A stretch of DNA of 64,000 nucleotides. Origin: an uncultured bacterium (lineage in GTDB: Bacteria > Omnitrophota > Omnitrophia > Omnitrophales > Aquincolibacteriaceae). The DNA lies in assembly GCA_964562525.1 (NCBI GenBank), contig CAZLTL010000001.1:32950-96949 (forward strand), in the 5' to 3' direction. The stretch's first letter is position 1; each line of letters starts with the position of its first letter. Below the pieces are notes generated by a model, which worked only from the letters and a program-made list of their open reading frames with translations, was not told the origin of the DNA and ran no database searches. Positions 6,133 to 21,345 of this stretch are shown here, in pieces. The position numbers were made by a program, and so were the translations under genes.

Positions 6133-7047
6133 CTAGGTTGACAAGGTTGAGAGTAAGGCGGATTCCAAAACAGGATAGCGAAAGTGAAAACCGGCTTTAA
6201 GGATTTTCTTGGGAACGGCACGCTGCCCCCCTAAAAGCATGGATGCCATTTCACCTAAAAGGAGATAGAGCGAAAAAGCAGGCACGGGAGCCCAAGACGG
6301 TCGATCTAAAACTTTGCCGAGCGACGCGCAAAAATCTTTCATCCGAACCGGATTGGGCGCACAAGCATTAAAAGGTCCCGCCACATCCGCTCGCTGAATG
6401 GCAAATAAAATCATTCCGACAAGATCGTGAATGTGAACCCAAGGGAACCATTGCTTGCCGGAACCCAAAGGTCCGCCAATTCCCCACTGAAAAGGCGGAA
6501 TCATTTTTGCCAAAGCGCCCTTTTTTTCTTCCAAAACAATTCCGATGCGCGGCAGAACGACCCGCACACCATGACGCATCGCTTGCAACGCGGCTTCTTC
6601 CCATTCCACGGATAAATCCGCGAGAAAACCATGACCTCGGTGATGCGACTCATCCACTTCACCTTCAGGTACCGATCCGTAAAATCCCACGGCAGACGCA
6701 TTAACAAGCACCTTAGGCTTCAAAGTACACTTTTCAATTGCTTGCACAATGACGCGTGTCGAATCAAGACGGCTCGAGCGCAGTTTTTCCTTTTGCGCAC
6801 GAGTCCATCGTTTATCAGCAATCCCTTCACCGCACAAATTAATGACCGCATCCGCGCCTTCCAAACATGAAGCCCAACTATTTACAGAGCGACCATCCCA
6901 AACAACCGTCTCAACCTGAGAATTGGGCGCCAAATTATTTTTTTTAAATCCGCGCGAAAGTAAAAAAACCTGGTGTCGGCTTTGAACCAAAGCTTGGACT
7001 AAATAAGTCCCCACCAAACCCGTGCCGCCGGCAATAACAACTTTCAT
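6133..7047 (-). CDS. TIGR01777/YfcH-like NAD-dependent epimerase/dehydratase family protein (SDR with a DUF1731-type C-terminus).
   Basis: N-terminus MKVVIAGGTGLVGTYL with a Rossmann GxxGxxG motif. Length 304 aa. Overlaps the upstream SRPBCC gene by 4 nt. Confidence 0.75.
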   Translation of the reverse strand: MKVVIAGGTGLVGTYLVQALVQSRHQVFLLSRGFKKNNLAPNSQVETVVWDGRSVNSWASCLEGADAVINLCGEGIADKRWTRAQKEKLRSSRLDSTRVIVQAIEKCTLKPKVLVNASAVGFYGSVPEGEVDESHHRGHGFLADLSVEWEEAALQAMRHGVRVVLPRIGIVLEEKKGALAKMIPPFQWGIGGPLGSGKQWFPWVHIHDLVGMILFAIQRADVAGPFNACAPNPVRMKDFCASLGKVLDRPSWAPVPAFSLYLLLGEMASMLLGGQRAVPKKILKAGFHFRYPVLESALLSTLST

Positions 7048-7508
7048 GCTGTTCCCTTCTCAAAAAAATCAGCGATCACTGTTTTCCGGTAATTGAAAAT
7101 TTTCTCCACTTCATTTTTTACGAACAACGCTCTCACAATATCTCCTAAGGGTCCCAGCGGAACTTCATATTTCACTTCATCTACCATGAGCGTTCCACCG
7201 TCTTTCGGGATAAAGCGATGCGTGTGAATCCATGTCTTGTAAGGGCCTTTTACCTGAGTATCCGTAAAAAAATGCGGCGGGTCATAATCGGTGATGACAG
7301 TTTGCCATTTCATGGGAATACCATAGAGGCGAATCGTGTAATCAATGACGGTCCCTTTCGCCATGGGAATCGGACTTGGAGTTAAGATTTTAAAACCTAA
7401 ATTAGGGGGCGTGACATGATCCAGGTTTTCAGGCTTTTTAAAAAAATCAAAAACACGATCAACAGAATAAGGTAAAAACTGCTCGCACGCTAACACGTGA
7501 AGGCTCAT
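7044..7508 (-). CDS. SRPBCC (polyketide cyclase/START-like) domain protein.
   Basis: 154 aa with the composition and length typical of Polyketide_cyc2. Translationally coupled to the YfcH-like gene; the two are fused in some genomes. Confidence 0.6.
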   Translation of the reverse strand: MSLHVLACEQFLPYSVDRVFDFFKKPENLDHVTPPNLGFKILTPSPIPMAKGTVIDYTIRLYGIPMKWQTVITDYDPPHFFTDTQVKGPYKTWIHTHRFIPKDGGTLMVDEVKYEVPLGPLGDIVRALFVKNEVEKIFNYRKTVIADFFEKGTA

Positions 7509-8245
7509 GATGCAGTCTTGAGCTTTTCGGCAAGCGTTTGCTGAAGTTGAGCCTGAAAAACTTGCGCTTTTTGCTTAAGCTGCTCAAGGATCACCCCCAC
7601 TTGCGTCTGAACACTTTCAACTACCTGTTCTTTGGAAGGAATGAAAGACTGCCAGCCGGCACTGCGTAAAGCCAAAAGCACAGCATAAACCGCGACATGA
7701 TCCGGAGTTGTGAGCTCCGTTAAATCTGTCTGAGGCGCCTCCACTTTTCGATTTTCGGTCACACGGTCATTACCAAGCTGAGTTTCAAAAACAACACGGT
7801 CCATTTGAAAGCGCACTTTTTCAATTACAAAAGAAACTGAGGGGGCTTTAATGACACCCTCGGAACCGGTCCCCATAACCCGTTTCAAAGGCCTAAGCTC
7901 AAGCACATTTGTTTCCGAAATTGATTTTTTACTCAGATACACTTCATCCACAAAAACTTCGAGACGCTTAATTTTAAAAATCCCTTTGGTTAGGCCGCTC
8001 GCGTCATACTCCGCCGTCACCTTAGAAATTTGAGCAAGCTTATGATCGCCATACCCTTCAAAATTCGAAAGGCGAACATTATGAATCGTCATTTTCTGAG
8101 ACGCGAATCCCCAACGCACCGACCCCACGGATGTCTTCACGCCCAGCCAACGCTCAAACGTGCTCGCGATTAAATAATTACTTCCGAAATAAATTCCCGC
8201 AAAAACCACTACCGCGGCAACAATTAAGCTTCGAATAAATTTCAT
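7505..8245 (-). CDS. Hypothetical membrane-anchored protein (N-terminal TM helix).
   Basis: ORF overlaps its neighbours by 4 nt, indicating operon membership. Hydrophobic N-terminus IVAAVVVFAGIYFG. Confidence 0.55.
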   Translation of the reverse strand: MKFIRSLIVAAVVVFAGIYFGSNYLIASTFERWLGVKTSVGSVRWGFASQKMTIHNVRLSNFEGYGDHKLAQISKVTAEYDASGLTKGIFKIKRLEVFVDEVYLSKKSISETNVLELRPLKRVMGTGSEGVIKAPSVSFVIEKVRFQMDRVVFETQLGNDRVTENRKVEAPQTDLTELTTPDHVAVYAVLLALRSAGWQSFIPSKEQVVESVQTQVGVILEQLKQKAQVFQAQLQQTLAEKLKTAS

Positions 8246-8253
8246 AAACCGTC

Positions 8254-10629
8254 CTATTGAGAATTCGCCGTATTCGAATCGGATTGATTCGAGTTGGATA
8301 AAAAGGCGTTAATCAACCCCGCCGCGATATCCGTTTTACTCGGACTGGCTGACCCGTTTGCGCCGCTCGAAGTTGAAGCTTGAGTACCGGTTAATGCATC
8401 CAACAAACTTGCCGGTTTTTGCTGTGATGGATAAATTTTCACGGGAACAGCACTGTCATCCGTAGGTACCGCCATACCGCCCGCTGCGGAAGCATCCGGG
8501 CTTGAAGCTCCCGTTGTCGTTCCCAAAAGCTGACTTAACCGGTCTACCCGTTGGCTTCCATCCGTCTTTCTTGTAAATTGATCCGCTAAAAGCTGGCCCG
8601 CTTTATTTCTCACAATTTCTGCGAGTAAGTATTGAATATCCGGCAAAATGCTCATCCTTGCCAAAGTGCCAGTCACCGTAAGCGGAATTTGCATTTGGCC
8701 TTGAGAGTTTAAAGTATAAGCAAGTTCATGCACCCGCCCGGCAAGCTCCGCCATAATTTCTTCATGAATCCAAATCGTTGGACGAGCATTGATGCTCCCG
8801 TCTACTCCCACATTCACGGCCCCGCTTACTTTTACGTCAGGAGAGACCACATCAAATTGATTAAACCGAATCGCGCCGCGTTCGATCGAAAAATCCTCAT
8901 CCATCGTCTCAAAAGGAGTGTCGCGACGAGCGCGGCGTTCTTTTAAAGAATCCGACATACGCTGATCCAAAGCGGAACTTAATCCGGGAATGGCGGCAAG
9001 CTTGGATAAAATTTCTTCCAACACATTCATATTCCTTAAAACCGGATCATCCACTCGAAAATGACCCGATCCGGAAAGTGAAGGCAAAATAACTTCCGGA
9101 ACTTTCCCGTTCCCGCCCGCATTAATCTCAAAAGAAAGCGTCCCTTCCATTGCCGGCGCGTCAGGCGAAGCCGGTGGCGGCGCAAGGTCTTTTAAGTTGA
9201 GATTTCGCGCACGCGCTTCCAAACGAAAAACCGGTGCGGTAAAAAGATTTTGGACATTCAGTCGCCCTTCAGCCGGACTGCTGCCCAAACTCATATTCCA
9301 AGCATCCAAACTCAGCTGGTCACCGCGCAGATTGCCGGTGAGTTGAATCTGGTTCAAATCCGAGGGAAGATTTTTCAGACGAATACGCCCTTGATCATAA
9401 CGAAAATCAATATCCCCCAAGGGGGTTTGTCCGGGCTCGAAGCTCAGCCGGCGTATATCAGCATGAACGCGCCCTTGTGGCGCATCAGATAAACCGCTGG
9501 AATAAATCGCGGGAATCTTTGCCGTCATTTCAGCCCAATTAAGTGAGTTGAGATCTAAATCCACCTGCGCCGGCCCTACAATGACACGACCTAAGTTAGA
9601 AGCCTCAGCCTTACCTTGAAAACTCAAATTAGTTGTACTTGAAAAAACAGCCGCCTTGACTTGAACGTCAAAAGGCGCGGAAAGACTCACATTGCTGGCC
9701 TTAACATCCAACTTTTGTACCAATCGGCCTGCATCCAAAGTTTCGACAAAACCATCTTTGAGCAATAAATCCGCGTTAACGGAATCCGGTTTACCATTCC
9801 GTATTTTAAGCTGAGAAATATCCGCCTCCAGCTTTCCACCCCAATCCGTCAGCGGAACATTTTGCATAATTTGGGGCAAACTGCGCACCAACTCATCGCG
9901 CTCAATCAAATCTAAATCTGCTTCCAATCTCAAATCATCCACGCGAATATCCGCGCCCTGATTTTCTAATTTAACCACCCCTCTCAAATTAACGTTTTTC
10001 TTATTTCCAAAAAAAGCACCTGACACGTTAAATTCCATGGGCTTAAAAAGTGAAACATTCTTTACCGTCAGCGCTAGATTTTTTAAATCCAGCTGAAGCG
10101 GCGCAAGCGCAGAGTCATCCTCATAATGGATATCAATATTCTTCAAATCGACTTGCGCAATAAGAAATGAGGAAAGTGCCGGCGCCAATCCATTTGCGGC
10201 GGTGTTCTTTTGCTCACCTGAACTTTGCGTTTCAGATTCAACGCTGACTTGCGGAGGATTAATTCCAAGAACCCTGACAACGCCATCCTCGCCCTTCACC
10301 GCGCGGATTTTGGCGCCATCAATAAAAACCGATCCAACTTGAACACTACGCCGCAAAAGGGGCGCTAATTGCAGTACGGCACCGGCATTCTGAACTTGAA
10401 GCACAGGCTCATCATTGCTTAGAACTTGAACGCCATCCACTTCCAAAGCAAGACCACCGCGCCAAACAAGCGCAATATTGCCGATTTTAACCGCGTGTCC
10501 CAAAGCCTTTGCTGCTTCTTTTTCTATCGTATCGCGGTAACGATTGGCATCAAAAGTAACCGCGAATAAAACAATTCCCGCGGTGATCAAAAAAATCAAA
10601 ACGGTGAGAATAATAATTATTTTTTTCAT
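8254..10629 (-). CDS. AsmA-family protein (outer-membrane biogenesis/lipid transport family).
   Basis: MKKIIIILTVLIFLITAGIVLFAVTFDANRYRDTIEKE is a typical AsmA N-terminal anchor plus domain start. Length 791 aa. Confidence 0.7.
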   Translation of the reverse strand: MKKIIIILTVLIFLITAGIVLFAVTFDANRYRDTIEKEAAKALGHAVKIGNIALVWRGGLALEVDGVQVLSNDEPVLQVQNAGAVLQLAPLLRRSVQVGSVFIDGAKIRAVKGEDGVVRVLGINPPQVSVESETQSSGEQKNTAANGLAPALSSFLIAQVDLKNIDIHYEDDSALAPLQLDLKNLALTVKNVSLFKPMEFNVSGAFFGNKKNVNLRGVVKLENQGADIRVDDLRLEADLDLIERDELVRSLPQIMQNVPLTDWGGKLEADISQLKIRNGKPDSVNADLLLKDGFVETLDAGRLVQKLDVKASNVSLSAPFDVQVKAAVFSSTTNLSFQGKAEASNLGRVIVGPAQVDLDLNSLNWAEMTAKIPAIYSSGLSDAPQGRVHADIRRLSFEPGQTPLGDIDFRYDQGRIRLKNLPSDLNQIQLTGNLRGDQLSLDAWNMSLGSSPAEGRLNVQNLFTAPVFRLEARARNLNLKDLAPPPASPDAPAMEGTLSFEINAGGNGKVPEVILPSLSGSGHFRVDDPVLRNMNVLEEILSKLAAIPGLSSALDQRMSDSLKERRARRDTPFETMDEDFSIERGAIRFNQFDVVSPDVKVSGAVNVGVDGSINARPTIWIHEEIMAELAGRVHELAYTLNSQGQMQIPLTVTGTLARMSILPDIQYLLAEIVRNKAGQLLADQFTRKTDGSQRVDRLSQLLGTTTGASSPDASAAGGMAVPTDDSAVPVKIYPSQQKPASLLDALTGTQASTSSGANGSASPSKTDIAAGLINAFLSNSNQSDSNTANSQ

Positions 10630-10715
10630 AAAACCAACGTAGTTAAAAACGTGACAAGAGCGTGCTCTATTCTAAAGCTTCTGACGCGAGAATCAAGAAG
10701 GGTATTCAGCACTAT

Positions 10716-10750
10716 AAAAATAAAAAAGCCCCCCTCAAATTGAGGAGGGC
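10716..10750 (-). terminator. Rho-independent terminator (GCCCTCCTCAATTTGAGGGGGGC followed by a T-tract on the minus strand) after the small PLDc_N gene.
   Basis: GC-rich hairpin at 10728-10750 with AAAAATAAAAAA at 10716-10727 on the plus strand. Confidence 0.5.
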
Positions 10751-10770
10751 TTTCAAATCAAAGCTGAAAC

Positions 10771-10935
10771 TTATTTTCTTCCGAGAAGCCAATAAAGGAT
10801 CAAACCGATAACAGGAAGAAGAAGAATCAACACAATCCAAAGAACCTTCTTACCCGTAGGCAAACTGCTCTTAAAAACATTGATAATCGCGAGAACGTCC
10901 AAAACCAATACCACTAAACCGAGTAAACCGCTCAT
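10771..10935 (-). CDS. Small (54 aa) membrane protein of the PLDc_N (phospholipase-D N-terminal-like) family. Not in the ORF track.
   Basis: Hand translation gives MSGLLGLVVLVLDVLAIINVFKSSLPTGKKVLWIVLILLLPVIGLILYWLLGRK. The LWIVLILLLPVIG..LYWLLGR signature is typical of the family. Confidence 0.55.
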   Translation of the reverse strand: MSGLLGLVVLVLDVLAIINVFKSSLPTGKKVLWIVLILLLPVIGLILYWLLGRK

Positions 10936-10991
10936 GCAACCTCCTTGATTGAACTGAAAGATTTTCTATTTTAAACGTGAAAATGAAGCCT

Positions 10992-11033
10992 GAAAACAAA
11001 AAAGGCGTGCGGATTACTCCGCACGCCTTTTTC
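10992..11033 (-). terminator. Strong bidirectional Rho-independent terminator (GGCGTGCGGA-ttac-TCCGCACGCC flanked by A/T tracts) at the 3' end of the PKD-repeat gene.
   Basis: Perfect 10-bp GC-rich stem at 11004-11027 with T-tracts on both strands. Confidence 0.65.
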
Positions 11034-11043
11034 TCGGCAAAGA

Positions 11044-13509
11044 TTACTTAGCGTATTTCTTTGCTTTAACTTTAATCAACGGAACCGGACCCGCATTCAC
11101 ATCCGCAACAAACCCGGAGGTTGCTGTCGAACAATGCGTTCCTTTGCCGTCATCAACGGTCAACGAAACATTGTACTGGCCGAACTTGCTGTACGCATGC
11201 TGCGCAGCAGCGCCTTCGCCTGTATTGCCGTCACCGAAGTTCCAAAGATAGCTGAGCTTATCGCCATCCGGATCGGAAGACTGAGCGCCATTGAACTGGC
11301 TCTGTTCTTCCGTGCAGCATACAAGGTTCGGACCTGCGTTCGCAATCGGAGGCGTATTCACGCTTACCGTTGTGTTCGCAGAACCCATACTGCAAGCTGA
11401 ACCCGCGCCGTCATTGGCTGTCACAGTTACAGTATAGTTGCCACCCTGTTTATAAGCGTAGGAAACATTGGATCCGCCTTCGATAGTCGTGCCATCGCCG
11501 AAGTTCCAAGTATACTTAAGCTTATCGCCATCAGGATCATTTGAAGCCGATGCGTCAAGCGATACGGTTTCACCCGTACAAGCATTGCGCGCCTGGTTCA
11601 AGCTCACCATCGGAGCGGAGTTGATGCGTACATTCAAGGCATCCATCGCTGTGGAGCAAGGTGTTCCCTTACCATCATCAACGGTTACGGACGCTGTATA
11701 GCTTCCACCCTTAGCATAAGTATGGCTGACCGACTTACCTTCTTTAACGGTACCGTCGCCCAAGTTCCAAGTGTACTTAGCGCCTTCAGGACCGTTTGCA
11801 TTCAAGGTCACCGCGCCGCCGGAGCAAGAGAAAACATTCTCGCCCGCGTCAACAACCGGAGACTTATTCAAACGCACGGAAACCGTGTCGGTTGAAACAT
11901 TGCAGCCTGCGCCGGAGTTATCCGTTACAGTCAAGCGCGCGGTATATTCACCGGCCTGGCTGTAAACGTGAGTCACTTTTGCGCCTTCAGCTGTTTGGCC
12001 ATCGCCGAAATCCCATGAGTACGCCAAACCATCGTTTTCAGCGTCATAAGATTTGCTGCCGTTAAAAGTGACCGCGTATTCGGCCGCTTGGCTTGTCAAG
12101 CAAAGAGCAACGTCATCGCCTGCAACCGCAACCGGTGCGCTGTTCACTTTAATTTGAGAGCTGCAACCCGCGAGAGAACATTCTGTGTTCTGACCATCAT
12201 TCACCGTAAGAGAAACATTATATGTTCCGCCCTGGGAGAAAGTCTTCGAAACAGAAGCACCTTCCGCTGTCGTACCATCGCCAAAGTTCCAGAGATATCC
12301 AAGTTCTTTGGATTCACCATCGCTCGAACCGACGCCGCTGATTGAAACAGCCTGACCGACGCAAGCAGATTGAGGAACGCTCAAGCCGCAAACCGGAGGT
12401 GTATTCACCAAAACGGATTGGGTAGTTGTTTTCTTTTCGCAATGAAGACCGGAGTTGTCGCTAACAGTCAAGGCCACATTATAACTTCCGCCTTTTCCAT
12501 AAACGTGAGTCACAACCGGTTCTGTGCTGGTAACGCCATCACCAAAGTCCCAAAGATAAGTAATCTTATCTTTGTTGGTGTCATAGGAGTCACGCGCGTC
12601 AAATTCAAATACGTTACATGCGCTTGGTTCCGGAGCCGGAGCAACCGGAGCTTCAAAGCCGCCGCGTTTGAAATAAATCGGAAGAGCATTACCTTTATCA
12701 TCGGTAAACTGAACGCCCGCGTTACCGCGAGTTTGGTTCGTTGTAGTTACCGTGTAAGCCAAACGACGCGCATCATCATTACCGAGAGTCACAGGCGTTT
12801 CAGCCCATTGACCGCTCACGGAATCCGCAACGTCATAAGATTTGCCGGTTGCGCCGTCCTGAAAACGTCCAACGCCGCCGTCTTTATCAAGGTCGAAATT
12901 GCGCGCAACGATATTGGTTACGCCATTCGGAATCGCAGGATAAAAATTGATTTGATCTCCCTTGCGAGGAAGCAAGCGGAAATAAAATTTTTCGCTGAAT
13001 GTTTCAGCGTAGTCCGGAGTGATCTTGAACTTAAACAAGTTCTGGTCATCGCCTTTGGTCGTTTGAACCAAAACGCGAAAACGATAAAAATCACCCACGT
13101 CTTTACCGGTATCAGGCTTAAAGCTGCCAAGCTGTGTCCAAGAACCATCACCCTTGGATGAACCCGCGCCAAAAGTTTCAGAAGCAAGAACTTCTTTACC
13201 TTCAACTGAGAAAACGGTTTCAGTATCAGCAACGGCTTTGCCGAACCCGCCGATAGCGTCAACTTTGCCGGATGCATCCGCGTCATAAACGCTAATGCTT
13301 ACCGCTTCAGTAGAAGCCTTCGGTACGTCAACAAAAAGAGCCATCTGCGTGTCATCTTTGCCACGAAGCGGATCCCCTTCCGGACCGAAAAGGTAAAAAT
13401 ATTCAGCCTTCGAGTTTTCTTTCGGCACTTCATAAGCAAAAGTGCTTACCGGAAAAGCAAGAGACAGAACAAGTAACGGAGCAATAAAGCCCGCAAGTTT
13501 CTTGATCAT
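11044..13509 (-). CDS. Secreted surface protein with multiple PKD repeats.
   Basis: Recurring YxWDFGDG/WNFGDGT signatures occur at least six times, followed by ...SVSDNxG/TVxDGxG. Signal peptide MIKKLAGFIAPLLVLSLAFPVSTFA. The start is set at the internal ATG rather than the track start at 13560. Confidence 0.8.
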   Translation of the reverse strand: MIKKLAGFIAPLLVLSLAFPVSTFAYEVPKENSKAEYFYLFGPEGDPLRGKDDTQMALFVDVPKASTEAVSISVYDADASGKVDAIGGFGKAVADTETVFSVEGKEVLASETFGAGSSKGDGSWTQLGSFKPDTGKDVGDFYRFRVLVQTTKGDDQNLFKFKITPDYAETFSEKFYFRLLPRKGDQINFYPAIPNGVTNIVARNFDLDKDGGVGRFQDGATGKSYDVADSVSGQWAETPVTLGNDDARRLAYTVTTTNQTRGNAGVQFTDDKGNALPIYFKRGGFEAPVAPAPEPSACNVFEFDARDSYDTNKDKITYLWDFGDGVTSTEPVVTHVYGKGGSYNVALTVSDNSGLHCEKKTTTQSVLVNTPPVCGLSVPQSACVGQAVSISGVGSSDGESKELGYLWNFGDGTTAEGASVSKTFSQGGTYNVSLTVNDGQNTECSLAGCSSQIKVNSAPVAVAGDDVALCLTSQAAEYAVTFNGSKSYDAENDGLAYSWDFGDGQTAEGAKVTHVYSQAGEYTARLTVTDNSGAGCNVSTDTVSVRLNKSPVVDAGENVFSCSGGAVTLNANGPEGAKYTWNLGDGTVKEGKSVSHTYAKGGSYTASVTVDDGKGTPCSTAMDALNVRINSAPMVSLNQARNACTGETVSLDASASNDPDGDKLKYTWNFGDGTTIEGGSNVSYAYKQGGNYTVTVTANDGAGSACSMGSANTTVSVNTPPIANAGPNLVCCTEEQSQFNGAQSSDPDGDKLSYLWNFGDGNTGEGAAAQHAYSKFGQYNVSLTVDDGKGTHCSTATSGFVADVNAGPVPLIKVKAKKYAK

Positions 13510-13735
13510 GGAGTAACTCCTGGTTTGGTTATTGGTTTTAGTTCTGATAATTAAGGACAAAATAGTTTTCTGCCCTAAAACTGCTTCTCAGACGCATTTT
13601 TGAAATAAATATTCACTCAAACTTCTAAAAATGAATCTTAAGAGAGGGCATATTGTAGACCAAAAAGAGAAACGGACAAGCAAAATCTAGCTTTGTAGTG
13701 GGGGTAAAATTATTTTTATAGGACGCGGTCAGACT

Positions 13736-14923
13736 CTAAGCGACTTTTTCAGCCTCGGTCATTTTACGCTCAATAATTTCTTTGAGCTTCTCAATCGGCT
13801 TGGCACCAACAAATAGCTCCCCATTAATTAAAAGCGATGGGGTTGATCCCACGCTTTTAGAAAACCCCATCAAAACATCATTTTCAACGATCTTCTTTGT
13901 GGCTTCGTTTTCATAACAAGCATCAAACAGCGGTTGATCCAAACCAAGCTCCCCTGTCATTCTCTTAAAATCTTCCGTTGTCCGTGCTTTTGACGGGTTG
14001 GCAAAAACTAAATTGTGAAATTCCCAAAACTTTCCCTGCGCATGCGCGCATTCCGAAGCAACATGCGCATACGGCGCTTGAGGATGAATCGGCAAAGGAA
14101 AATGACGCCATACCCGTCGAATTTTTCCGGGATAGTCTTGCATCACCTGGTCTAAAGAAGGATTCAGTTTCTGACAGAAAAAACAATGAAAGTCGCTGAA
14201 CTCCACAATCGTCACAGGCGCTTGTTCCGGACCTTGTGCCGGACGCCCCGCCTCAGTAAAGTTAATCCGGCTTTCCAACTCTTCCTTTCTGGCTTTCCGC
14301 TCCGCCGCAAGTTTCGCGGAAAGTTCAGGATCCAGCTTTTCAGCAAAGTAATTGAATGGGCGCATACCCGTAATTTTTTCGCCGTTCATAAAAAAGGTTG
14401 GCGCACCATTCACTCCGCGTGTTTGAGCATCGGCTAAATCTCCAAGCACTTGGCTTCGCCCACGCTCGGTCTGCATACAGGCTTTCAAATCAGCATCGTT
14501 CAGCGCGATAGCTTGAGTCACGGAATCCACCGTCACGCGTTCATTGGCTTGAAAAACATAATCATGAAATTCCCAGAACTTTCCCTGCTCAGCAGCGCAA
14601 ACAGCCGCTTCATGCAAAGGAAATGTTCCCGTGCCCGGTTCGCCCGAAAGCGGAAAATGCCGGAAAGTCATTTGAATTTGATCGGGATATTTTTCGCGCA
14701 ATTCGTTAAAGATAGCCGCCTGCTTTTTGCAATAAGGGCAAAAAAAGTCAGAAAATTGTTCGATCTTCAGCTTGGCTGTTTCAGGCCCCCTTACGAAGGA
14801 AGATACAGAAGCTGGCTCCGTTTTTTCAGATTCCACAGCCGCGGCGGGCTTCGATTCAGCACAACCCGAAAGCAATCCCGCTGCCAAAATTAAAACAGCC
14901 GAGATCGAATTCATTTTCTTCAT
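13736..14923 (-). CDS. Lipoprotein with two tandem DsbA-like thioredoxin domains (thiol:disulfide oxidoreductase).
   Basis: Lipobox LLSGC. Two CxxC motifs (FCPYCKK and FCFFCQK), each in a ~170-aa repeat with FWEFH. Confidence 0.8.
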   Translation of the reverse strand: MKKMNSISAVLILAAGLLSGCAESKPAAAVESEKTEPASVSSFVRGPETAKLKIEQFSDFFCPYCKKQAAIFNELREKYPDQIQMTFRHFPLSGEPGTGTFPLHEAAVCAAEQGKFWEFHDYVFQANERVTVDSVTQAIALNDADLKACMQTERGRSQVLGDLADAQTRGVNGAPTFFMNGEKITGMRPFNYFAEKLDPELSAKLAAERKARKEELESRINFTEAGRPAQGPEQAPVTIVEFSDFHCFFCQKLNPSLDQVMQDYPGKIRRVWRHFPLPIHPQAPYAHVASECAHAQGKFWEFHNLVFANPSKARTTEDFKRMTGELGLDQPLFDACYENEATKKIVENDVLMGFSKSVGSTPSLLINGELFVGAKPIEKLKEIIERKMTEAEKVA

Positions 14924-15033
14924 TTTTCTTCCTTTGAAAATTAAACGGTAATCAGGCAGGCATTATACGGGAAATTGAAGCGAAGTCTATGTGGAGACCG
15001 AAAAACTCAACTCAGAGTCCAACTCGCAAAAAA

Positions 15034-15360
15034 TTAGTTGGCCCGAAAAACCTTAACGGTCACGGACTGCCCATTAGCCCAGGGCCAAATAAAGGAATAA
15101 TAGTAAAGCTCTTCGGAAGCAAGATAATAGAGAGTCTGATCGTCGCGAATGCCGCCGTATTCATTTGCCATTTTCTTATCGTCCGAACTGGGTTTGGCTC
15201 CCGCGGGCTTAACCGGCTTTCCAAAAAAGGTTTCAAGCACTTGATTCACTTTGGGAAGATCAGCAACTTTCACGACAAGCTCAAAATACTCCTCATCATC
15301 GCTACGCAACTCCTGGCAAGGCGCCTTTCGCAATTCTGCCAACAAAAGATCATAACGCAT
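15034..15360 (-). CDS. Hypothetical protein (108 aa).
   Basis: ORF only. Start abuts the end of the upstream gene. Confidence 0.4.
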   Translation of the reverse strand: MRYDLLLAELRKAPCQELRSDDEEYFELVVKVADLPKVNQVLETFFGKPVKPAGAKPSSDDKKMANEYGGIRDDQTLYYLASEELYYYSFIWPWANGQSVTVKVFRAN

Positions 15361-16076
15361 TAGGCTGCCTTTCTCTGTTCAGGCGCGGACAACCGAAGCC
15401 GGTTCTCCTCCTCCTCGATTTTTGAAAAAATACCTTCCAAAGCTCTTTTCGAAACTTCTTCTTCCAAATCAAAGACAGCCTCAGAATTTCTAACGAAAGG
15501 CAGTGACGCGTAAAGAGTCTTGAACTCAATGTACCCCTGCAAAGCCGTCTGACTACTGACGGATCGCTCAATTTCGCGACGAAAGTCTTGTTGCAAACGT
15601 GTCTCCATTTTGCGGCGGAAATACTGTGTTAGCGACCCCTCTTCTATGAGGATTTGCTCGGGCTTTTTTTCAAATTTTAAATCTTCAAGCGCATCTTTCA
15701 TTAAAACCCCGGCCTTCGGCGCGGCAGTTTCCGCCGCACGGTTAAGCCCCATTTGAAAATCATGCCAAAACAAATCAGCATTCAACTTCTTTGAGATTTT
15801 TTCAATTCCTTTGACCGTGTTAGGAACATCAATTCGAAGCTCAGGCTGATGATAAAAGCCGTTTACCTGACTGACTTCAAGCACGGTATTGTCGATCGCC
15901 TGACGCAGCAAATCTTTCATCGTTCGTTCATTCGCGGAATTTCCTTCTCCGCGTCCCTGAAAAAAGAAAATACGGCTGATAAAACCATCCGCCATAAGCA
16001 CAGGCGCAAAAGAAAAAAGAGAGAAACTTAAAAGAACTGCAGCGACGACTTGTCGTCCCATATTTTTAATTTTCAT
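15360..16076 (-). CDS. Secreted protein, possibly DUF4197 family.
   Basis: Signal peptide present. The NRAAETAAPKAGVLMKDALEDL and EGSLTQYF segments are reminiscent of DUF4197. This assignment comes from memory. Confidence 0.45.
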   Translation of the reverse strand: MKIKNMGRQVVAAVLLSFSLFSFAPVLMADGFISRIFFFQGRGEGNSANERTMKDLLRQAIDNTVLEVSQVNGFYHQPELRIDVPNTVKGIEKISKKLNADLFWHDFQMGLNRAAETAAPKAGVLMKDALEDLKFEKKPEQILIEEGSLTQYFRRKMETRLQQDFRREIERSVSSQTALQGYIEFKTLYASLPFVRNSEAVFDLEEEVSKRALEGIFSKIEEEENRLRLSAPEQRKAA

Positions 16077-16246
16077 AACTCACCCGACCTAATTCCCATT
16101 ATAAAAATGTCCGGGAAAAGTATCGGCATCTTTCTCTGAGTTCTGAAGACAGGTAAATAAACACCTCCGCAGCAAATAAGAATAAAAAAGCCTAACCTTT
16201 TTAAAAAGCTTTGAATGTAACGCACAAGCAAGTATTTAAGATTTCT

Positions 16247-16351
16247 CAAAAAGGTTCAGTCGCAAGGCGCAAACGAACGCCCGCGGAGCCGTAGTGAAAC
16301 CCCTACGGCGCACAAGGAAGTGATGTTTGCAAGGCAGCGAATAACCTTTTT
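16247..16351. repeat. Copy A of a ~100-nt conserved structured intergenic element (second copy at 54216-54335).
   Basis: Both copies share a terminal inverted repeat (AAAAAGGTT...AACCTTTTT) and a core (CAAGGCG..GCGGAG..GTAG...TACG.CGCACAAGGAAG.GA..TT.GCAA...AGC). The internal hairpin reads CCGTAG/CTACGG in A and GCGCAG/CTACGC in B, a compensatory change at the closing pair. Confidence 0.6.
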
Positions 16352-16361
16352 CAGGAATCTT

Positions 16362-17216
16362 TTAGCAGGATTTGCGGATGATGAGTTCGGGGGAAACCAC
16401 ACGAGTTACAGGCTCAAGCGATTTTTTTTCAATTTGTTCCATTAAAATCTTAACTGCTTCGCGTCCCATCAGCTCAAGCGGTTGACCGATGGTTGTCAGC
16501 GAGGGTTCAGTGTATTTCCCCTTCCGAATTCCGTCATAACCAATCACCGCGACTTGATCCGGAACCCGAATCCAGTTTTCTTTCAACGCGCGAATCGCGC
16601 CGATGGCAATATCGTCATTCACGCAAATAATCGCACGCGGCAGTTTTTCACATTGATGGATCATATCCAGCATTTTTAAATAGCCGTCTTCTTCAAAAAA
16701 ATAATCGCATTTGCGGTAATGCTCGGGATCAAAAGTCAGCTGATATTGCCCTAAAAGTTCGCGCAACAAATCGTAGCGCTGGCGCGCGTCAAGTGAAGCA
16801 TCATCGGGAGCATGCAACATGCCGATTTTTCTGTATCCGCGGCTGAGCAAATGCCGCATCGCGAGATGAACGCCTTCTTTATTGTCGCAATAAACAATGC
16901 TTGAACGTAGTCCCGGAGTCGGATCATTGATCACAATGACGGGAATCTTTTTTTCATCCAAGGCTTCCGCGATATAACGGTCATGAATGCGCCAGGTAAT
17001 TAAAATTAATGCGTCAATTTGATGCCGGTCTAAAATTTTAAAATCCGGATCGCGATACTCTTCTTCTTTAACCAAAATCAGGCGAAAATCATGCGGTGTC
17101 CCGACAAGCGCGTTGGTCGCTCCGATCAAAAGCTGCGTGAAATAGTCCCCTTTGAAAAGCTCCGGGGTAAAAGCCCCTATCAAGCCGATCGTTAACCGTT
17201 TCTTTGTCTCACTCAT
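16362..17216 (-). CDS. LacI-type periplasmic-binding-fold (Peripla_BP) domain protein lacking the N-terminal HTH.
   Basis: 284 aa that aligns to the ligand-binding core of LacI/GalR regulators (IGLIG...; VIGYDG...TTI). The sequence starts directly in the sugar-binding domain with no HTH and no signal peptide. Confidence 0.6.
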   Translation of the reverse strand: MSETKKRLTIGLIGAFTPELFKGDYFTQLLIGATNALVGTPHDFRLILVKEEEYRDPDFKILDRHQIDALILITWRIHDRYIAEALDEKKIPVIVINDPTPGLRSSIVYCDNKEGVHLAMRHLLSRGYRKIGMLHAPDDASLDARQRYDLLRELLGQYQLTFDPEHYRKCDYFFEEDGYLKMLDMIHQCEKLPRAIICVNDDIAIGAIRALKENWIRVPDQVAVIGYDGIRKGKYTEPSLTTIGQPLELMGREAVKILMEQIEKKSLEPVTRVVSPELIIRKSC

Positions 17217-17280: not shown

Positions 17281-18003
17281 TCAAATACGCAAGCACCGTT
17301 TAGAAAAAGGATGCCAAAAAAAAGCCGGCACTCCGCCTTCAATACTGCCATTTGGACGAACTAAATTGCGAAACAATTCAAAACCGGAAGCATCTTGAAT
17401 AATTGAATTTCGGCTCTCATCGCGAAAAATAAAACAACGATTCGTAGATGTTTCTTTAGATAAAAATTTTTTCATACGCCGCGCCAAAGCTGCGGAATCA
17501 AGTTTATAAAAATCAGTTTTGAGCTTGGACTCCACTCTTCCGAAATCAGCCTCGGTGTGTTTCTCTAATATCCCCCAAAGCGAACCAAACTGGATCAAAC
17601 GCCTTTCGCAAACAGCTTGCTTTGCCGCGTGCCGCGCGAGCAAGCCCGCAAACTCGCTCCAAGTCCGTGGCGCATCTCCTACAAAAAACTGCAGAACTTC
17701 AAACGAGTAATACCCACGCACAACTTCTGACAATTGACGCATCGCACCGGCATAAAAATCTTGAAACGCGCGAAAAATAATTTTCTCATCATCCGTAATC
17801 AAAGAAAAAACACTCAAATTTACCGGCGCGCCGTCAGCGCTCTGCGCCTGATAAAGCACAGCGTCCCCATCGCGCCCCAGCCAACAAAGCGATCCGGGAA
17901 CCAAATTGAGTTCAGGTGGAATAAAAAAAGACTGCTGCTCAAAGAGAGTGAGCGGCTCAATAGGCTTAAGAGCCGGTGATTCATTTTGATCCGGCATATT
18001 CAA
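17281..18003 (-). CDS. Hypothetical protein (240 aa), last gene of a four-gene operon.
   Basis: ORF overlaps the upstream gene by 4 nt. Confidence 0.5.
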   Translation of the reverse strand: MNMPDQNESPALKPIEPLTLFEQQSFFIPPELNLVPGSLCWLGRDGDAVLYQAQSADGAPVNLSVFSLITDDEKIIFRAFQDFYAGAMRQLSEVVRGYYSFEVLQFFVGDAPRTWSEFAGLLARHAAKQAVCERRLIQFGSLWGILEKHTEADFGRVESKLKTDFYKLDSAALARRMKKFLSKETSTNRCFIFRDESRNSIIQDASGFELFRNLVRPNGSIEGGVPAFFWHPFSKRCLRI

Positions 18004-19118
18004 GGCAAAACGACTTGGCGGCTCGGTAATGCTGCCGTTTTTTTTGCCGCCGCCGCCTTAACGGCCTTCTTCTTGCGGATAACTCGAGGATCTTTAAAAA
18101 TCATTTTTTCAACTTGATCTTCGGTCATTTTTTTCTCGGCATAATCAATCCCCAGCGCATTATGGTGGCGGTCTTTCTCGCTTTCCTGCGCGGTATTACC
18201 CGTATCGCCAATTTCGTGCGCGTCGGTCGTTCGACGCGCAAACTCAGCGCCATAGGCTTTTGTAAGCCAATAACTCCAAAAAATATGCCGGATGACGTCA
18301 TACAAAATTTCAGGGTCACGCTTTTGAAGCTTCACGGCGCGCATCTCCGCCTCGCGGCGAAAATGAAGCAGCTTCGGCATTCTTATTAAATTTTGAGAAG
18401 CCAACATCAGATCTGATTCCGTAAATTTAGGCTCAATCATTTCAGCGATAATTCTTAAGTCTTCCGGGTTACCTTCTAAATGAACTTCTCCTTTTTCATT
18501 TTGAACCGAGTGGAACCGGACAGAAATAGGCCAATCGTCGACTAAAAAAACAGCCTTTCCGCTCATGGACAAATTTTTAATCGGCTTATCCTGAAAGATC
18601 CAGTCTTTATAAACACGCGCGCGTTTCAAAACTTGCGCCTTCCAAGAACGAGGATTGCCGTTCAAAAGCAGCCGGGTTTGAAAATCCATTTTAGAGACGG
18701 ATTCAACGCGCTCTTGATCATCACGATCTTCATGCAAAAGCCGCCCACCGCGCGCATTCAATCCGGAAATTTGAACTTGCACCTCGATCCCCTTAAGACT
18801 GATTTGCTTCAAACCTAAGTGAACTTGACTGACAGTTAATTCAAATTCACGCGGATCGAGATAAGGATGTTCAAAGCGGCTAACACCGCGGGCGCGGATA
18901 TTCTTCAGCGCTATGCCCGTTCTTGATAATTTAAACTTTCCATAATCAAAGAAGTTAATTTCAAAACTAGTCCCTTCTGTTTTCTTGACCCACGCTTGCA
19001 ATTGATGATCAAGCCGCGGCTTCAAAATAAGCGCCGCCGTAACAAGCGTCACCACAAAGAGGATGGCTGCGATAATTAAAAGCTGAAAAAATTTGATCAT
19101 ATTGAAGATAGCAATCAA
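18000..19118 (-). CDS. Membrane-anchored protein of unknown function; tandem paralog of the gene at 19122-20276.
   Basis: N-terminal TM helix. The C-terminus has a shared invariant block FWSYWLT..YG.EFARRTTDAHEIGDTGNTAQESEKDRHHNALGIDYA. Confidence 0.65.
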   Translation of the reverse strand: MIAIFNMIKFFQLLIIAAILFVVTLVTAALILKPRLDHQLQAWVKKTEGTSFEINFFDYGKFKLSRTGIALKNIRARGVSRFEHPYLDPREFELTVSQVHLGLKQISLKGIEVQVQISGLNARGGRLLHEDRDDQERVESVSKMDFQTRLLLNGNPRSWKAQVLKRARVYKDWIFQDKPIKNLSMSGKAVFLVDDWPISVRFHSVQNEKGEVHLEGNPEDLRIIAEMIEPKFTESDLMLASQNLIRMPKLLHFRREAEMRAVKLQKRDPEILYDVIRHIFWSYWLTKAYGAEFARRTTDAHEIGDTGNTAQESEKDRHHNALGIDYAEKKMTEDQVEKMIFKDPRVIRKKKAVKAAAAKKTAALPSRQVVLP

Positions 19119-19121
19119 CCC

Positions 19122-20276
19122 TTAAGCAATTTGATTTTGCAAGATACGCGGGTCGGTTAAAATAATTTTCGCGACATCTTGCTCGGAAAGTTTTCGCTGG
19201 GCATATTCAATTCCAAGCGCGTTATTGCGGCGGTCTTTTTCACTTTCCCGCGCGGTATTGGACGCATCCCCGATTTCATGAGCATCCGTCACTCTGCGCG
19301 CAAAATCCGTCCCAAAGGTCTGCGTCAAATAATAACTCCAAAAAACATGTCTGAAAGTGTCATAACTAATTTCCGAACCAAACTGATAGAGCGCTTCCGC
19401 TTTCGCTTCCGCGAGGGTCCGAACATGCAGCAACCGCGGCGTTTTTAAGAAATTCTTGGAAGCAATCCGCACGTCTTCCTCGGTAAATTTAGGTTCAATG
19501 GCGTGGGCGATTTTACGCAAGTCATTTATATCGCCTTCAAGATAAGTCGCCCGATTACGCTCCTTACTCGACGCAAAGTAAACCCGGGTCGTCACGCCAT
19601 CCGTGGCAAATGTCGCGTTCCCGCTCATGTGCACATCCGTCATATGTGCTCCGTTAAAAACCCAACTCTTAAATTGACGCACCCAAACGATAGCCTGCTT
19701 CTTCCATTTCCAAGGTGCCCTGCCAATCGGAATCCAAGCTTGAAAATTCAGTTCTGAAAGGGAATCTAATCTGCGAGGGCTATCCTCCGCTCCGGGGAGA
19801 ACAGCCCCTCCCTGCACATCCAAGCCATGAATATGAAGACCCACGCCCAAGCCCTCACGGAAGTTGCTCTTGAAATAAATCTGTAAAATCGGGATATCCA
19901 TTTCAAATTGGCGGGGCTGAAAATAGGGGTAATCATATCTTATGATCCCGCGCGCGCGCACCTGCTTAAAAACAATTCCTTGGTGGGAAAAACGAAAACC
20001 CCCATATTCAAAAAAGTTAACTTCGAAGTTTCGCCCCTTGGATCGATCCACCCAGCTTTCAATCTTCTGTTTCACGAAAGGTTCAATACCGGAAAAAACA
20101 AAAAAAAGAATACTCGCAACAACAAAAACAAAGCCTAAGCCCGCTCCGATGAAATAAATCTTTTTGCTTAACTTAAAGTCCGGCTTTAATTTAGATTTTT
20201 TATAATGCTTCAGCTCAAACTCATCGTCTTTGCGGGTTTTTCTGTCGATCTCATTCTTTAACTGCGAGTACTTCAC
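19122..20276 (-). CDS. Membrane-anchored protein of unknown function; tandem paralog of the gene at 18000-19118.
   Basis: Same architecture. C-terminal block FWSYYLTQTFGTDFARRVTDAHEIGDASNTARESEKDRRNNALGIEYA. Confidence 0.65.
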   Translation of the reverse strand: MKYSQLKNEIDRKTRKDDEFELKHYKKSKLKPDFKLSKKIYFIGAGLGFVFVVASILFFVFSGIEPFVKQKIESWVDRSKGRNFEVNFFEYGGFRFSHQGIVFKQVRARGIIRYDYPYFQPRQFEMDIPILQIYFKSNFREGLGVGLHIHGLDVQGGAVLPGAEDSPRRLDSLSELNFQAWIPIGRAPWKWKKQAIVWVRQFKSWVFNGAHMTDVHMSGNATFATDGVTTRVYFASSKERNRATYLEGDINDLRKIAHAIEPKFTEEDVRIASKNFLKTPRLLHVRTLAEAKAEALYQFGSEISYDTFRHVFWSYYLTQTFGTDFARRVTDAHEIGDASNTARESEKDRRNNALGIEYAQRKLSEQDVAKIILTDPRILQNQIA

Positions 20277-20326
20277 GCTTAGGCTTCCACAATTATTTTC
20301 ATGTCAAAAAATCCGAATGAACATTT

Positions 20327-20935
20327 TTAGTCATTAAGCTGATCTTCCAATTTAACGGTCAATTCAAAGATTTGCTCAAGCAGATAATTCGGAATCAATT
20401 TGCTGTCGGAACACTCTTTGCGAACCGCGCTGAGGGCTGAAATCGCCCGGCGCAAAACACCATTCCGTTTGGTTTTCTTAAACTCCGTGCTTTCCGTATC
20501 TTGAGTTTCCTCAACGATTTTTTTTACTTTTGCGCGAATTTCTTCCTGTCCTACGCCTCGCTCTAAAACCGATTCCTTCATTTCAGCGAAATCTTCGGCT
20601 GGAATATTCTTATTATTTTTGGCAAGCCGCAAAGTGTTCAGCGCCTCCAAATCCGGAACAGGACGCGCGGTTTCTTTTTCAAAAAACTCGGGCTTGGTTA
20701 GCTTCGGCTCTTCGGTTTCAAGGAAAGCAAAAGATTTGATAATTTTAGAAGCCATCGCTTCTTTCATGCCCAATTCTTTTTTGCAGTAAGTTTCAAAAGC
20801 CAAAAAACCCCAGCTCTTATACATTTTATCTTTATAGATAGTCTGCAAATAACGCCCTAATTCGATCCAAGAAGCTTTATAGCTTTTGGCCGTTTGAAGC
20901 GTTTTGCCGCGGATTTCTTCTTCAATGACTGACAT
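20327..20935 (-). CDS. Hypothetical cytoplasmic protein (202 aa), possibly DNA-binding; first gene of the operon.
   Basis: The KSWGFLAFETYCKKELGMKEAMASKIIKSF segment resembles HTH-like segments of plasmid/phage DNA-binding proteins. This is a weak call. Confidence 0.5.
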   Translation of the reverse strand: MSVIEEEIRGKTLQTAKSYKASWIELGRYLQTIYKDKMYKSWGFLAFETYCKKELGMKEAMASKIIKSFAFLETEEPKLTKPEFFEKETARPVPDLEALNTLRLAKNNKNIPAEDFAEMKESVLERGVGQEEIRAKVKKIVEETQDTESTEFKKTKRNGVLRRAISALSAVRKECSDSKLIPNYLLEQIFELTVKLEDQLND

Positions 20936-20970: not shown

Positions 20971-21345
20971 TCATTTTGCTTTTAAATCACCCACCGGAAA
21001 CTGCTCTGTATCCCATGAACAGATGCGCGGAATTCCGGAAGCCATCGTATATTCCAAAAAATAAACTGAAAGCCATTCTTTTCCCGACTTTTTATCACTT
21101 AGAATAAATAGCCCCGGAGCCAATTCAGATTTTTTTTCAAACTCTTTATCGGGGCCTACGTGTTCATGACGAATCGCAATGCTGCCGCCCAGCTTGGTGC
21201 ATGAACTGGATGCCACATAGAAAGAATTCGCCGTCTGATAAAACCCATAAGCAGGGTGGTCTTCCCGAAGCGGAACCTTAACGGAAACAGGCCCGCATCC
21301 CACTAAAGTCAAAATCAAACATAGCCATAGCACTGCTTTTTTCAT
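20971..21345 (-). CDS. Small lipoprotein (124 aa).
   Basis: Lipobox LTLVGCG after a signal peptide. Confidence 0.55.
   Translation of the reverse strand: MKKAVLWLCLILTLVGCGPVSVKVPLREDHPAYGFYQTANSFYVASSSCTKLGGSIAIRHEHVGPDKEFEKKSELAPGLFILSDKKSGKEWLSVYFLEYTMASGIPRICSWDTEQFPVGDLKAK

Follow-up and report, generated by a model that had tools for sequence, protein, structure and literature searches.

In a 64,000-nucleotide (nt) stretch of DNA from an uncultured bacterium of the Omnitrophota (NCBI GenBank assembly GCA_964562525.1, contig CAZLTL010000001.1, positions 32,950 to 96,949 of the forward strand; the whole of it is referred to below as the window), two adjacent minus-strand genes, here termed A and B, code for membrane-anchored proteins that share a C-terminal domain of the Pfam family DUF6973. 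Sequence comparisons securely identify DUF6973 with the Min-Wnt family, a member of the SAA-Wnt clade of the Lipocone superfamily. This superfamily was delineated by Burroughs, Nicastro and Aravind (eLife 2025, PMC12419801), who place the prokaryotic Min-Wnt as the progenitor of the animal Wnt proteins. We favor, with moderate confidence, a reading in which A and B form a periplasm-facing Min-Wnt pair that would act on lipid-linked envelope precursors and be used as an effector pair against other cells. The features on which this reading turns are listed here (aa, amino acid residues; TM, transmembrane):

19122-20276, minus strand: paralog A, 384 aa, GTG start, Pfam DUF6973 at 43.3 bits
20079-20150, minus strand: predicted TM anchor of A, about aa 43-66, KD19 above 1.6 over aa 38-69
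19533-20027, minus strand: predicted half-β-barrel of A, aa 84-248, with six strands, a helix (188-208) and three strands
19125-19529, minus strand: Min-Wnt/DUF6973 Lipocone domain of A, aa 250-384, predicted as all-α with five helices
19212-19361, minus strand: motif of A, aa 306-355, with D306, R309, H310, W313, S314, H333, E334, D337, N340, E344, D348, N352 and G355
18000-19118, minus strand: paralog B, 372 aa if read from a TTG, with the ATG at 19100 (366 aa) the more probable start
18150-18299, minus strand: motif of B, aa 274-323, with D274, R277, H278, W281, S282, H301, E302, D305, N308, E312, D316, N320 and G323

The original prediction had pictured A and B as the middle members of a four-gene envelope system and had left their conserved C-terminal block without a family. 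The block is in fact DUF6973/Min-Wnt, one member of which, BteO (PDB 9UU0), comes with a structure and a phenotype. Against the Pfam profile (PF22322; gathering threshold 27 bits on the whole-protein hidden Markov model (HMM) score) A attains 43.3 bits (E 3.3e-11) and B 32.1 bits (E 9.3e-8), and the same profile is matched by all 48 of 48 diverse relatives, with a best E of 2.7e-22. In the published set of Min-Wnt sequences (Min-Wnt.tsv of PMC12419801) the motif strings RHVLWSY, WSYLLT and TDAHE recur in 23-88 sequences; two of its members, NQU95834.1 and OGW75637.1, are respectively 36% and 35% identical to the C-terminal domain of A, and the set also holds close relatives of BteO. Further, a profile built from the 48 relatives matches 9UU0 at E = 2.6e-7, across the motif, and on DUF6973 the matched segment of BteO attains 46.5 bits. 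Taken together, the matches to the published set, the match to 9UU0 and the DUF6973 scores lead to the identification of DUF6973 as Min-Wnt and of BteO as one of its members. It was only the 48-sequence profile that recovered 9UU0, a single-sequence search of A against the PDB sequences having given no match, and a Foldseek search of the PDB with the whole two-domain model of A returned nothing at E <= 0.001. The Pfam Wnt family itself was reached by sub-threshold hmmscan matches only, in 10 of the 48 members (best E = 0.009); for another Min-Wnt protein an HHpred p-value of 1.5e-6 to Wnt has been published (PMC12419801). No meaningful NCBIfam match was obtained, either for the four proteins of the predicted system or for the 48 family members, and PHROGs gave only weak matches to families without an assigned function. 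With the addition of a neighboring lipoprotein, all five proteins had zero matches at E <= 1 among the PADLOC models of anti-phage defense. The Min-Wnt family was defined only in 2020-2025, and literature searches on 'DUF6973' and 'PF22322' returned nothing.

The block noted at the C-termini of the two proteins is present in both and maps on the predicted Lipocone active site. As set out in PMC12419801, that site consists of a His from helix 2 (H2), a Glu from helix 3 (H3), an acidic residue (D/E) near the end of H3, an Asp from helix 4 (H4), a downstream polar residue and a capping Gly. The template fits H310 (H2), E334 (H3), D337, D348 (H4), N352 and G355 of A, and H278, E302, D305, D316, N320 and G323 of B, positions that are invariant or nearly so. 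Across 19 orthologs of the A/B type, D306, R309, H310, W313, S314, H333, E334, N340, E344, D348, N352 and G355 (A numbering) do not vary, and H333, E334, D348 and G355 are likewise invariant in the 48 members drawn from many phyla. All predicted catalytic positions are intact in A and B; with every motif residue kept in both paralogs, neither is therefore a degenerate copy. The chemistry proposed for the superfamily as a whole is the cleavage or exchange of phosphate-linked lipid head groups, which is proven for TelC, acting on lipid II, and for PTDSS1/2 (PMC12419801). The block had been likened to zinc-dependent phospholipase C (PLC) and nuclease P1: neither family yields an HMM or fold signal for A or B, though the phospholipase-type chemistry implied by the comparison comes close to that predicted for the Lipocones.

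Mutational data on these positions exist for BteO, in which each of the substitutions R143A, H144A, H167A, E168A, D187A and D191A abolishes both toxicity and the binding of OmpA (He et al., PNAS 2025, PMC12541434). In our alignment R309/H310 of A correspond to R143/H144 of BteO, H333/E334 to H167/E168, E344 to D187 and D348 to D191, and all six toxicity-essential residues are conserved in A and B. By this alignment the 'binding' residues of BteO coincide with the predicted catalytic set of the Lipocones. Lipid II, undecaprenyl and Lipocone go unmentioned in the BteO paper, as does BteO in the Lipocone paper; nor did our literature search find a paper linking BteO to Lipocone or Min-Wnt. Since its toxicity residues are the predicted catalytic residues of the superfamily, BteO is possibly a phosphoesterase, and BteO along with the whole family may represent unrecognized lipid II or carrier-lipid phosphoesterases.

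The relationship of A and B bears out the tandem paralogy that was originally proposed: with 42% identity over 336 aa (BLASTP, E = 3e-104) they are, as judged from their alignment, true tandem paralogs, and their orthologs are collinear over the full length. An AlphaFold2 model of A (predicted local distance difference test 83, predicted template-modeling score 0.73) begins with a long helix at aa 39-79, in which the anchor is continuous with a stalk helix, and proceeds to a half-β-barrel made up of strands 84-185, the helix 188-208 and strands 215-248. The C-terminal domain that follows is modeled with helices at 276-296, 305-321, 323-335, 342-360 and 365-383, i.e., with the four-helix core of the Lipocones and the fifth helix typical of the SAA-Wnt clade. 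In B, too, a predicted N-terminal anchor (about aa 8-32) precedes a half-β-barrel and a Min-Wnt domain, to which a Lys/Ala-rich C-terminal tail is added. A hydrophobic N-terminal helix, a half-β-barrel with a helix and a Min-Wnt domain are the elements of the architecture tabulated in the supplement of PMC12419801 as Min-Wnt, 'SP+half-β-barrel(f)', Bacteroidota and PVC group (SP, signal peptide; PVC, Planctomycetota-Verrucomicrobiota-Chlamydiota).

Each protein has a single hydrophobic N-terminal helix (KD19 maxima 2.6 in A and 3.1 in B), in agreement with the membrane anchoring foreseen earlier. In A, 14 Lys and Arg residues precede the hydrophobic core at residue 47; its orthologs share a clade-specific N-terminal extension of 35-46 residues with 12-14 Lys/Arg before the helix (20151-20276 in A), and other members of the family have a short basic N-terminus followed by a hydrophobic helix of about 20 residues. 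By the positive-inside rule, both A and B are predicted to adopt an N-in/C-out topology with a periplasmic body. The tail of the B-type proteins (18003-18074 in B) is rich in Lys, Ala and Pro, ends in …KKKAVKAAAAKKTAALPSRQVVLP and is conserved among the B orthologs. These type-specific appendages suggest a subfunctionalization of A and B after an old duplication.

Briefly, the mechanism that we envisage is as follows. The N-terminal helix would tether A and B to the inner membrane, their bodies lying in the periplasm and the strongly basic N-terminal extension of A staying in the cytoplasm. The Min-Wnt cone might then accept the tail of a lipid-linked precursor, most plausibly an undecaprenyl-(di)phosphate-linked intermediate of peptidoglycan or polysaccharide synthesis such as lipid II. 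His310, Glu334 and Asp348, aided by Arg309, His333, Asp337/Glu344 and Asn352, would cleave or exchange the phosphate-linked head group, a step that would parallel the action of the Lipocone enzyme TelC on lipid II. The same groove engages OmpA-type peptidoglycan-binding domains in BteO, and such binding may add to catalysis or replace it. We favor catalysis because the residues concerned are the conserved polar set of the superfamily, are invariant across phyla, and only two hydrolase activities were excluded in the BteO study. The least certain step is the role: the two proteins might serve as an envelope-directed effector pair against other cells, a role already suggested for this architecture. 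The lipoprotein and the 240-aa protein encoded next to them, both restricted to the clade and evolving faster, would be candidates for accessory or self-protection factors. A host-dependent or predatory lifestyle has been proposed for many Omnitrophota, and an effector role is in keeping with it.

The phyletic distribution of the family has two tiers. Full-length homologs of A fall into 17 clusters in 5.8 billion proteins, those with a name coming from metagenome-assembled genomes (MAGs) of Candidatus Omnitrophota. A profile search of 1.84 billion representatives brings in a wider family of 651 clusters at 50% identity (E <= 1e-3), in most of which the proteins measure about 345 aa and match the profile almost from end to end. 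Among the species genomes of GTDB, the family occurs in Omnitrophota, Planctomycetota (including the cultured Bythopirellula polymerisocia), Verrucomicrobiota/Opitutales, Desulfobacterota, KSB1, Calditrichota, Latescibacterota, Acidobacteriota, Cytophagales, Bdellovibrionales and a few Pseudomonadota, and the exact motif is found in about 100 of 185,579 of them. Among the 87 loci that we compared, the tandem pair and its present neighbors are found only in the close Omnitrophota clade (loci L001-L013), and at every locus outside that clade, 76 in all, the family gene is single-copy. Some Omnitrophota MAGs carry two separate family loci (L020 with L046 and L064 with L088), and L030, L063, L064 and L066 have longer open reading frames (ORFs) of 462-753 aa with family domains, which may be fusions or artefacts of upstream starts.

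Conserved partners are scarce in this wider family. By clustering with BLAST, at most 12 loci share a neighbor, a pattern that reflects Opitutales synteny, and no Pfam family recurs in more than three of 107 wider-family neighbors surveyed, among which OmpA is absent. A small exported neighbor of the immunity-protein kind is seen in 9 of 75 diverse loci and is missing from the other 66. A classical polymorphic toxin was considered as well and set aside: A and B have no modules of the PAAR, RHS or LXG type, no variable tip and no consistent immunity-like neighbor (the same 9 of 75 loci). Pfam families related to type VI secretion systems (T6SS) were recorded neither within about 8 kb of the block at the syntenic loci L001-L007 nor in our scan of the window genes at 6133-17216 and 20971-21345.

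Around the pair lie four further genes of the same orientation:

20971-21345, minus strand: lipoprotein, 124 aa, lipobox LVGC, clade-restricted, fast-evolving, predicted to be periplasmic
20327-20935, minus strand: p202, 202 aa, ATG start with a good ribosome-binding site, a highly conserved soluble protein found Omnitrophota-wide
17281-18003, minus strand: p240, 240 aa, TTG start overlapping the B stop, a clade-restricted soluble α/β protein
16362-17216, minus strand: protein with a LacI-family ligand-binding domain, 284 aa, directly downstream of p240

Four of the six genes, namely p202, A, B and p240, were correctly located as minus-strand ORFs by the original prediction, as was the 50-nt gap between p202 and A; the lipoprotein gene, 35 nt upstream of p202, is a fifth co-directional gene. 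The overlaps claimed for the last three genes stand in part. Inspection of the DNA places the TAA stop of A at 19124-19122, separated by 3 nt from the TTG of B, and the two genes do not overlap; the start of B is more likely the in-frame ATG at 19100, because the ortholog P0014 begins there, and from this start the spacer is 21 nt. B and p240 do overlap by 4 nt, but only if p240 begins at its TTG (18003), and it could instead start at the ATG at 17997.

The block of lipoprotein, p202, A, B, p240 and LacI-like genes is intact on all the longer contigs of close relatives, so that the conservation of the operon outside this genome holds among closely syntenic relatives and lapses beyond them. Because the flanking 15 kb, with genes for ABC-F, OsmC, DUF4197, double-DsbA and PKD proteins, are syntenic too, the gene order mirrors relatedness as much as function. 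All genes of the block are under purifying selection relative to the closest relative, with a quoted ratio of nonsynonymous to synonymous substitution rates (dN/dS) of 0.06-0.14 and lower values for p202 (0.012) and the LacI-like gene (0.005); the ratio is 0.089 for A and 0.063 for B, and within the block these two, along with p240 and the lipoprotein, evolve fastest.

These data bear directly on the four-gene envelope system as first conceived, in which p202 would be a regulator, A and B two zinc-PLC/P1-like enzymes and p240 an accessory protein. The genes are indeed co-directional and closely spaced, the block is intact in all close relatives, and p240 shares its phyletic range with B, to which it is coupled in translation. 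However, homologs of p202 make up 82 clusters across Omnitrophota and elsewhere in that phylum never stand beside DUF6973 genes; in three more distant genomes (L089, L091 and L092) their surroundings are unrelated and include no DUF6973 gene. The rate at which p202 evolves is about 7-fold lower than that of A, and p202 is 99% identical where A is 83% identical. Nor has it any significant DNA-binding assignment, the surmise that it binds DNA resting on sub-threshold matches to DUF3102 in 2 of 29 homologs (best E = 0.023); a profile search gave it no PDB match, and its invariant motifs are W23, W42, Y50-C51 and L102-R-L-A105. Together with the absence of a zinc-PLC/P1 signal, the membership of A and B in a published family and architecture, and the 76 of 87 loci that are single-copy without any partner gene, this largely refutes the four-gene system, to which we attach hardly any probability. 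p202 is conserved independently of the pair; it is most likely a neighbor rather than a part of the module and probably an uncharacterized lineage-specific housekeeping protein.

The LacI-like protein would likewise be just a neighbor of the A/B module. It has no N-terminal helix-turn-helix, aligns from about position 63 of RbsR in an ORF that cannot be extended upstream and, although always immediately downstream of p240 in the clade, is 93-100% identical where A is 52-83% identical. In contrast, p240 and the lipoprotein have the same narrow phyletic range as the A/B pair. The lipoprotein, which is 47% identical where p202 is 82% identical, has an invariant DHPAYGFYQTAN motif (D29-HPAYGFYQTAN40) and two conserved cysteines (C49 and C109), gives no Pfam, PDB, BamE or OmpA C-terminal domain (OmpA-C) signal by sequence, and is a candidate partner or self-protection factor of the Min-Wnt pair. 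p240 is a possible partner of A and B; no export signal was found in it, and its fold matches are XisH- or nuclease-like.

The effector reading draws on the patchy phyletic spread of the family, the lack of an immunity-like neighbor at most loci and the faster evolution of these genes within the block. Moreover, conflict contexts are statistically over-represented for the Min-Wnt family, and its half-β-barrel architecture has been read as comprising toxins of interspecific conflict, usually without immunity proteins (PMC12419801). Several observations nevertheless weigh against this reading. The locus is syntenically fixed among relatives, and no hallmarks of secretion systems, mobile elements or polymorphic toxins are found nearby; the dN/dS values of A and B lie within the range of periplasmic housekeeping proteins such as DsbA and DUF4197; and pattern scans for promoters and terminators came out at chance level (8 found where 9.3 were expected, and 6 where 9.9 were). 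If the anchor is not cleaved, the Min-Wnt domain would face the periplasm of the producer itself, and there is no recognizable immunity protein. Finally, the literature searched holds no enzyme assay for any Min-Wnt protein, and the sole experimental study, that of BteO (PMC12541434), reports a non-enzymatic binding of OmpA-C.

Some of these points find a more natural place in an endogenous envelope function, which we consider a possible though not a probable account. A and B, anchored in the producer's inner membrane and possibly heterodimeric, would then remodel its own carrier-lipid or outer-membrane-bound lipid head groups, with the half-β-barrel holding the lipid by analogy with ClaspCone-1, which sets a published precedent: a Lipocone joined to a TM segment and a lipid-binding domain and acting on lipids while they are in transit. 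No member of the clade has lost either paralog or any of the catalytic residues, and the purifying selection on the pair is comparable to that on their periplasmic neighbors; the anchor helix is long and, in the model, continuous with the stalk helix; and the absence of an immunity gene from 66 of 75 diverse loci, like the vertical inheritance within Opitutales, speaks for such a function.

The stable syntenic site points the same way, lying as it does amid genes for double-DsbA, DUF4197, AsmA/YhdP-like, START-like and PKD proteins. The double-DsbA gene (13736-14923, minus strand) codes for a 395-aa lipoprotein-like fusion of two DsbA/thioredoxin domains, and adjoining it is the gene for an 838-aa protein with six PKD repeats (11044-13560, minus strand); both are conserved in synteny with the block, and the neighborhood is therefore rich in envelope biogenesis. 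A 246-aa protein without a Pfam match (7505-8245, minus strand), encoded directly downstream of an AsmA/YhdP/DUF748-like gene (8254-10629, minus strand) and upstream of a START-like lipid-binding one (7044-7508, minus strand), weakly resembles the N-terminus of the Min-Wnt family in its anchor and first β-strands (E = 3e-5 in a search of the window only, HMM positions 2-105). Its resemblance and its position between these two genes hint that the half-β-barrel may be related to lipid-handling β-folds, and the resemblance lends some support to an endogenous function.

Set against this are the enrichment of Min-Wnt in conflict contexts and the placement of the same architecture among toxins (PMC12419801), the toxicity of a periplasmic Min-Wnt domain in Bacteroides and Escherichia coli (PMC12541434), the rarity and patchiness of the family, which is unlike that of core housekeeping genes, and the want of a conserved biosynthetic neighbor that would indicate a pathway. 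The boldest form of the idea, in which A, B, the lipoprotein and p240 form a module that resides in the producer's envelope and is directed at it, with an inner-membrane-anchored heterodimer editing head groups, strikes us as rather unlikely. It would be the first case of Min-Wnt in a housekeeping role, and the lipids so edited could be undecaprenyl-linked or outer-membrane-bound and held by the half-β-barrel.

The BteO data raise the further alternative, which we think improbable, of a non-enzymatic binder, the groove of which would bind OmpA-C-, Pal- or MotB-type domains of the prey or of the cell itself and perturb or organize the link between outer membrane and peptidoglycan. The six residues needed for the binding of OmpA9 and for the toxicity of BteO are conserved in A and B. 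BteO showed neither muramidase nor amidase activity in vitro, binds the C-terminal domains of OmpA, is neutralized by BtiO, a periplasmic mimic of OmpA-C, and has its toxicity suppressed by the overexpression of OmpA (PMC12541434). However, the same residues are near-universally conserved polar positions in a superfamily for two members of which, PTDSS1/2 and TelC, enzymatic activity is proven. Their invariance across phyla with differing OmpA-like proteins is a pattern more usual for catalytic sites than for surfaces of protein-protein contact. The hydrolase activities excluded for BteO were only two, both on E. coli peptidoglycan, with no lipid II or undecaprenyl substrates among those assayed, and the muropeptide composition did change in vivo. 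Likewise, no OmpA-family gene is present among the 107 neighbors of the wider family. On this evidence we retain the enzymatic pair directed at lipid-linked precursors as the preferred reading.

The conserved motif is thus the pocket of the bacterial progenitors of animal Wnt, a family whose biochemistry is so far predicted. The locus offers a clean, membrane-anchored and duplicated example of Min-Wnt from Candidatus Omnitrophota, outside of any T6SS, of an architecture that extends through many diderm phyla in a single-copy form without immunity genes. The domain, its link to Wnt and the architecture were already published, as were the structure and phenotype of one relative, and the envelope system is not as undescribed as was originally supposed, Min-Wnt proteins with a signal peptide and half-β-barrel having been listed for the PVC group (PMC12419801). 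New are the duplication in tandem, together with the companions peculiar to the clade, the basic extension that A is predicted to have in the cytoplasm, the wide spread of the family as a single-copy gene and the identity, hitherto unrecognized, of the BteO 'binding' residues with the Lipocone catalytic set. By joining two papers that do not cite each other, the comparison makes the enzymatic question of the family, namely whether it is a TelC-like lipid II phosphoesterase, testable, and DUF6973 proteins can be annotated as Min-Wnt/BteO-like envelope-targeting domains.

Among known systems, the metazoan Wnt proteins have lost the catalytic residues, carry Cys-rich hairpin insertions and a lipidated Ser, and act as signaling ligands (PMC12419801), unlike A and B. 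TelC, the toxin of the Streptococcus intermedius type VII secretion system (T7SS), shares the Lipocone superfamily with them and, in the account of Whitney et al. 2017 given in PMC12419801, acts outside the cytoplasm, where it cleaves lipid II between undecaprenol and diphosphate. It differs in belonging to the ClaspCone-CapCone-TelC clade, in being a polymorphic toxin with LXG/T7SS delivery, in its immunity protein TipC and in the lack of detectable sequence similarity. ClaspCone-1, in which a TM segment is combined with TULIP and Lipocone domains (PMC12419801), follows the same plan as A and B, with an inner-membrane anchor, a β-rich domain that may hold lipid and a Lipocone that is soluble and periplasmic; its Lipocone family and middle domain are other ones, and the holding of lipid by the half-β-barrel is putative.

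BteO is a further relative. This GA3 T6SS effector of Bacteroides fragilis has an N-terminal TM helix and exerts its toxicity in the periplasm alone; affected cells elongate, bleb and lyse, and their muropeptides are altered (PMC12541434). It has in common with A and B the DUF6973/Min-Wnt domain, the N-terminal TM helix and the six essential residues, and its periplasmic action matches their predicted topology. It differs in having no half-β-barrel and in being encoded in a variable T6SS region beside its immunity protein BtiO; in checks of p240 by export signal and fold and of the lipoprotein by sequence, an immunity partner of the BteO-BtiO type with an OmpA-C-like fold was not found adjoining A and B. 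A close counterpart is the published Min-Wnt with a signal peptide and half-β-barrel (PMC12419801), which agrees with A and B in the C-terminal domain, the motif, the predicted active site, the half-β-barrel wrapping a helix, the PVC group/Bacteroidota range and the usual lack of an immunity gene, and whose function is itself a prediction. Compared to it, the Omnitrophota locus stands apart in its two ancient tandem paralogs, accompanied by a clade-specific 240-aa protein and a lipoprotein, in the basic cytoplasmic extension and anchor that A has in place of a simple signal peptide, and in the basic tail of B.

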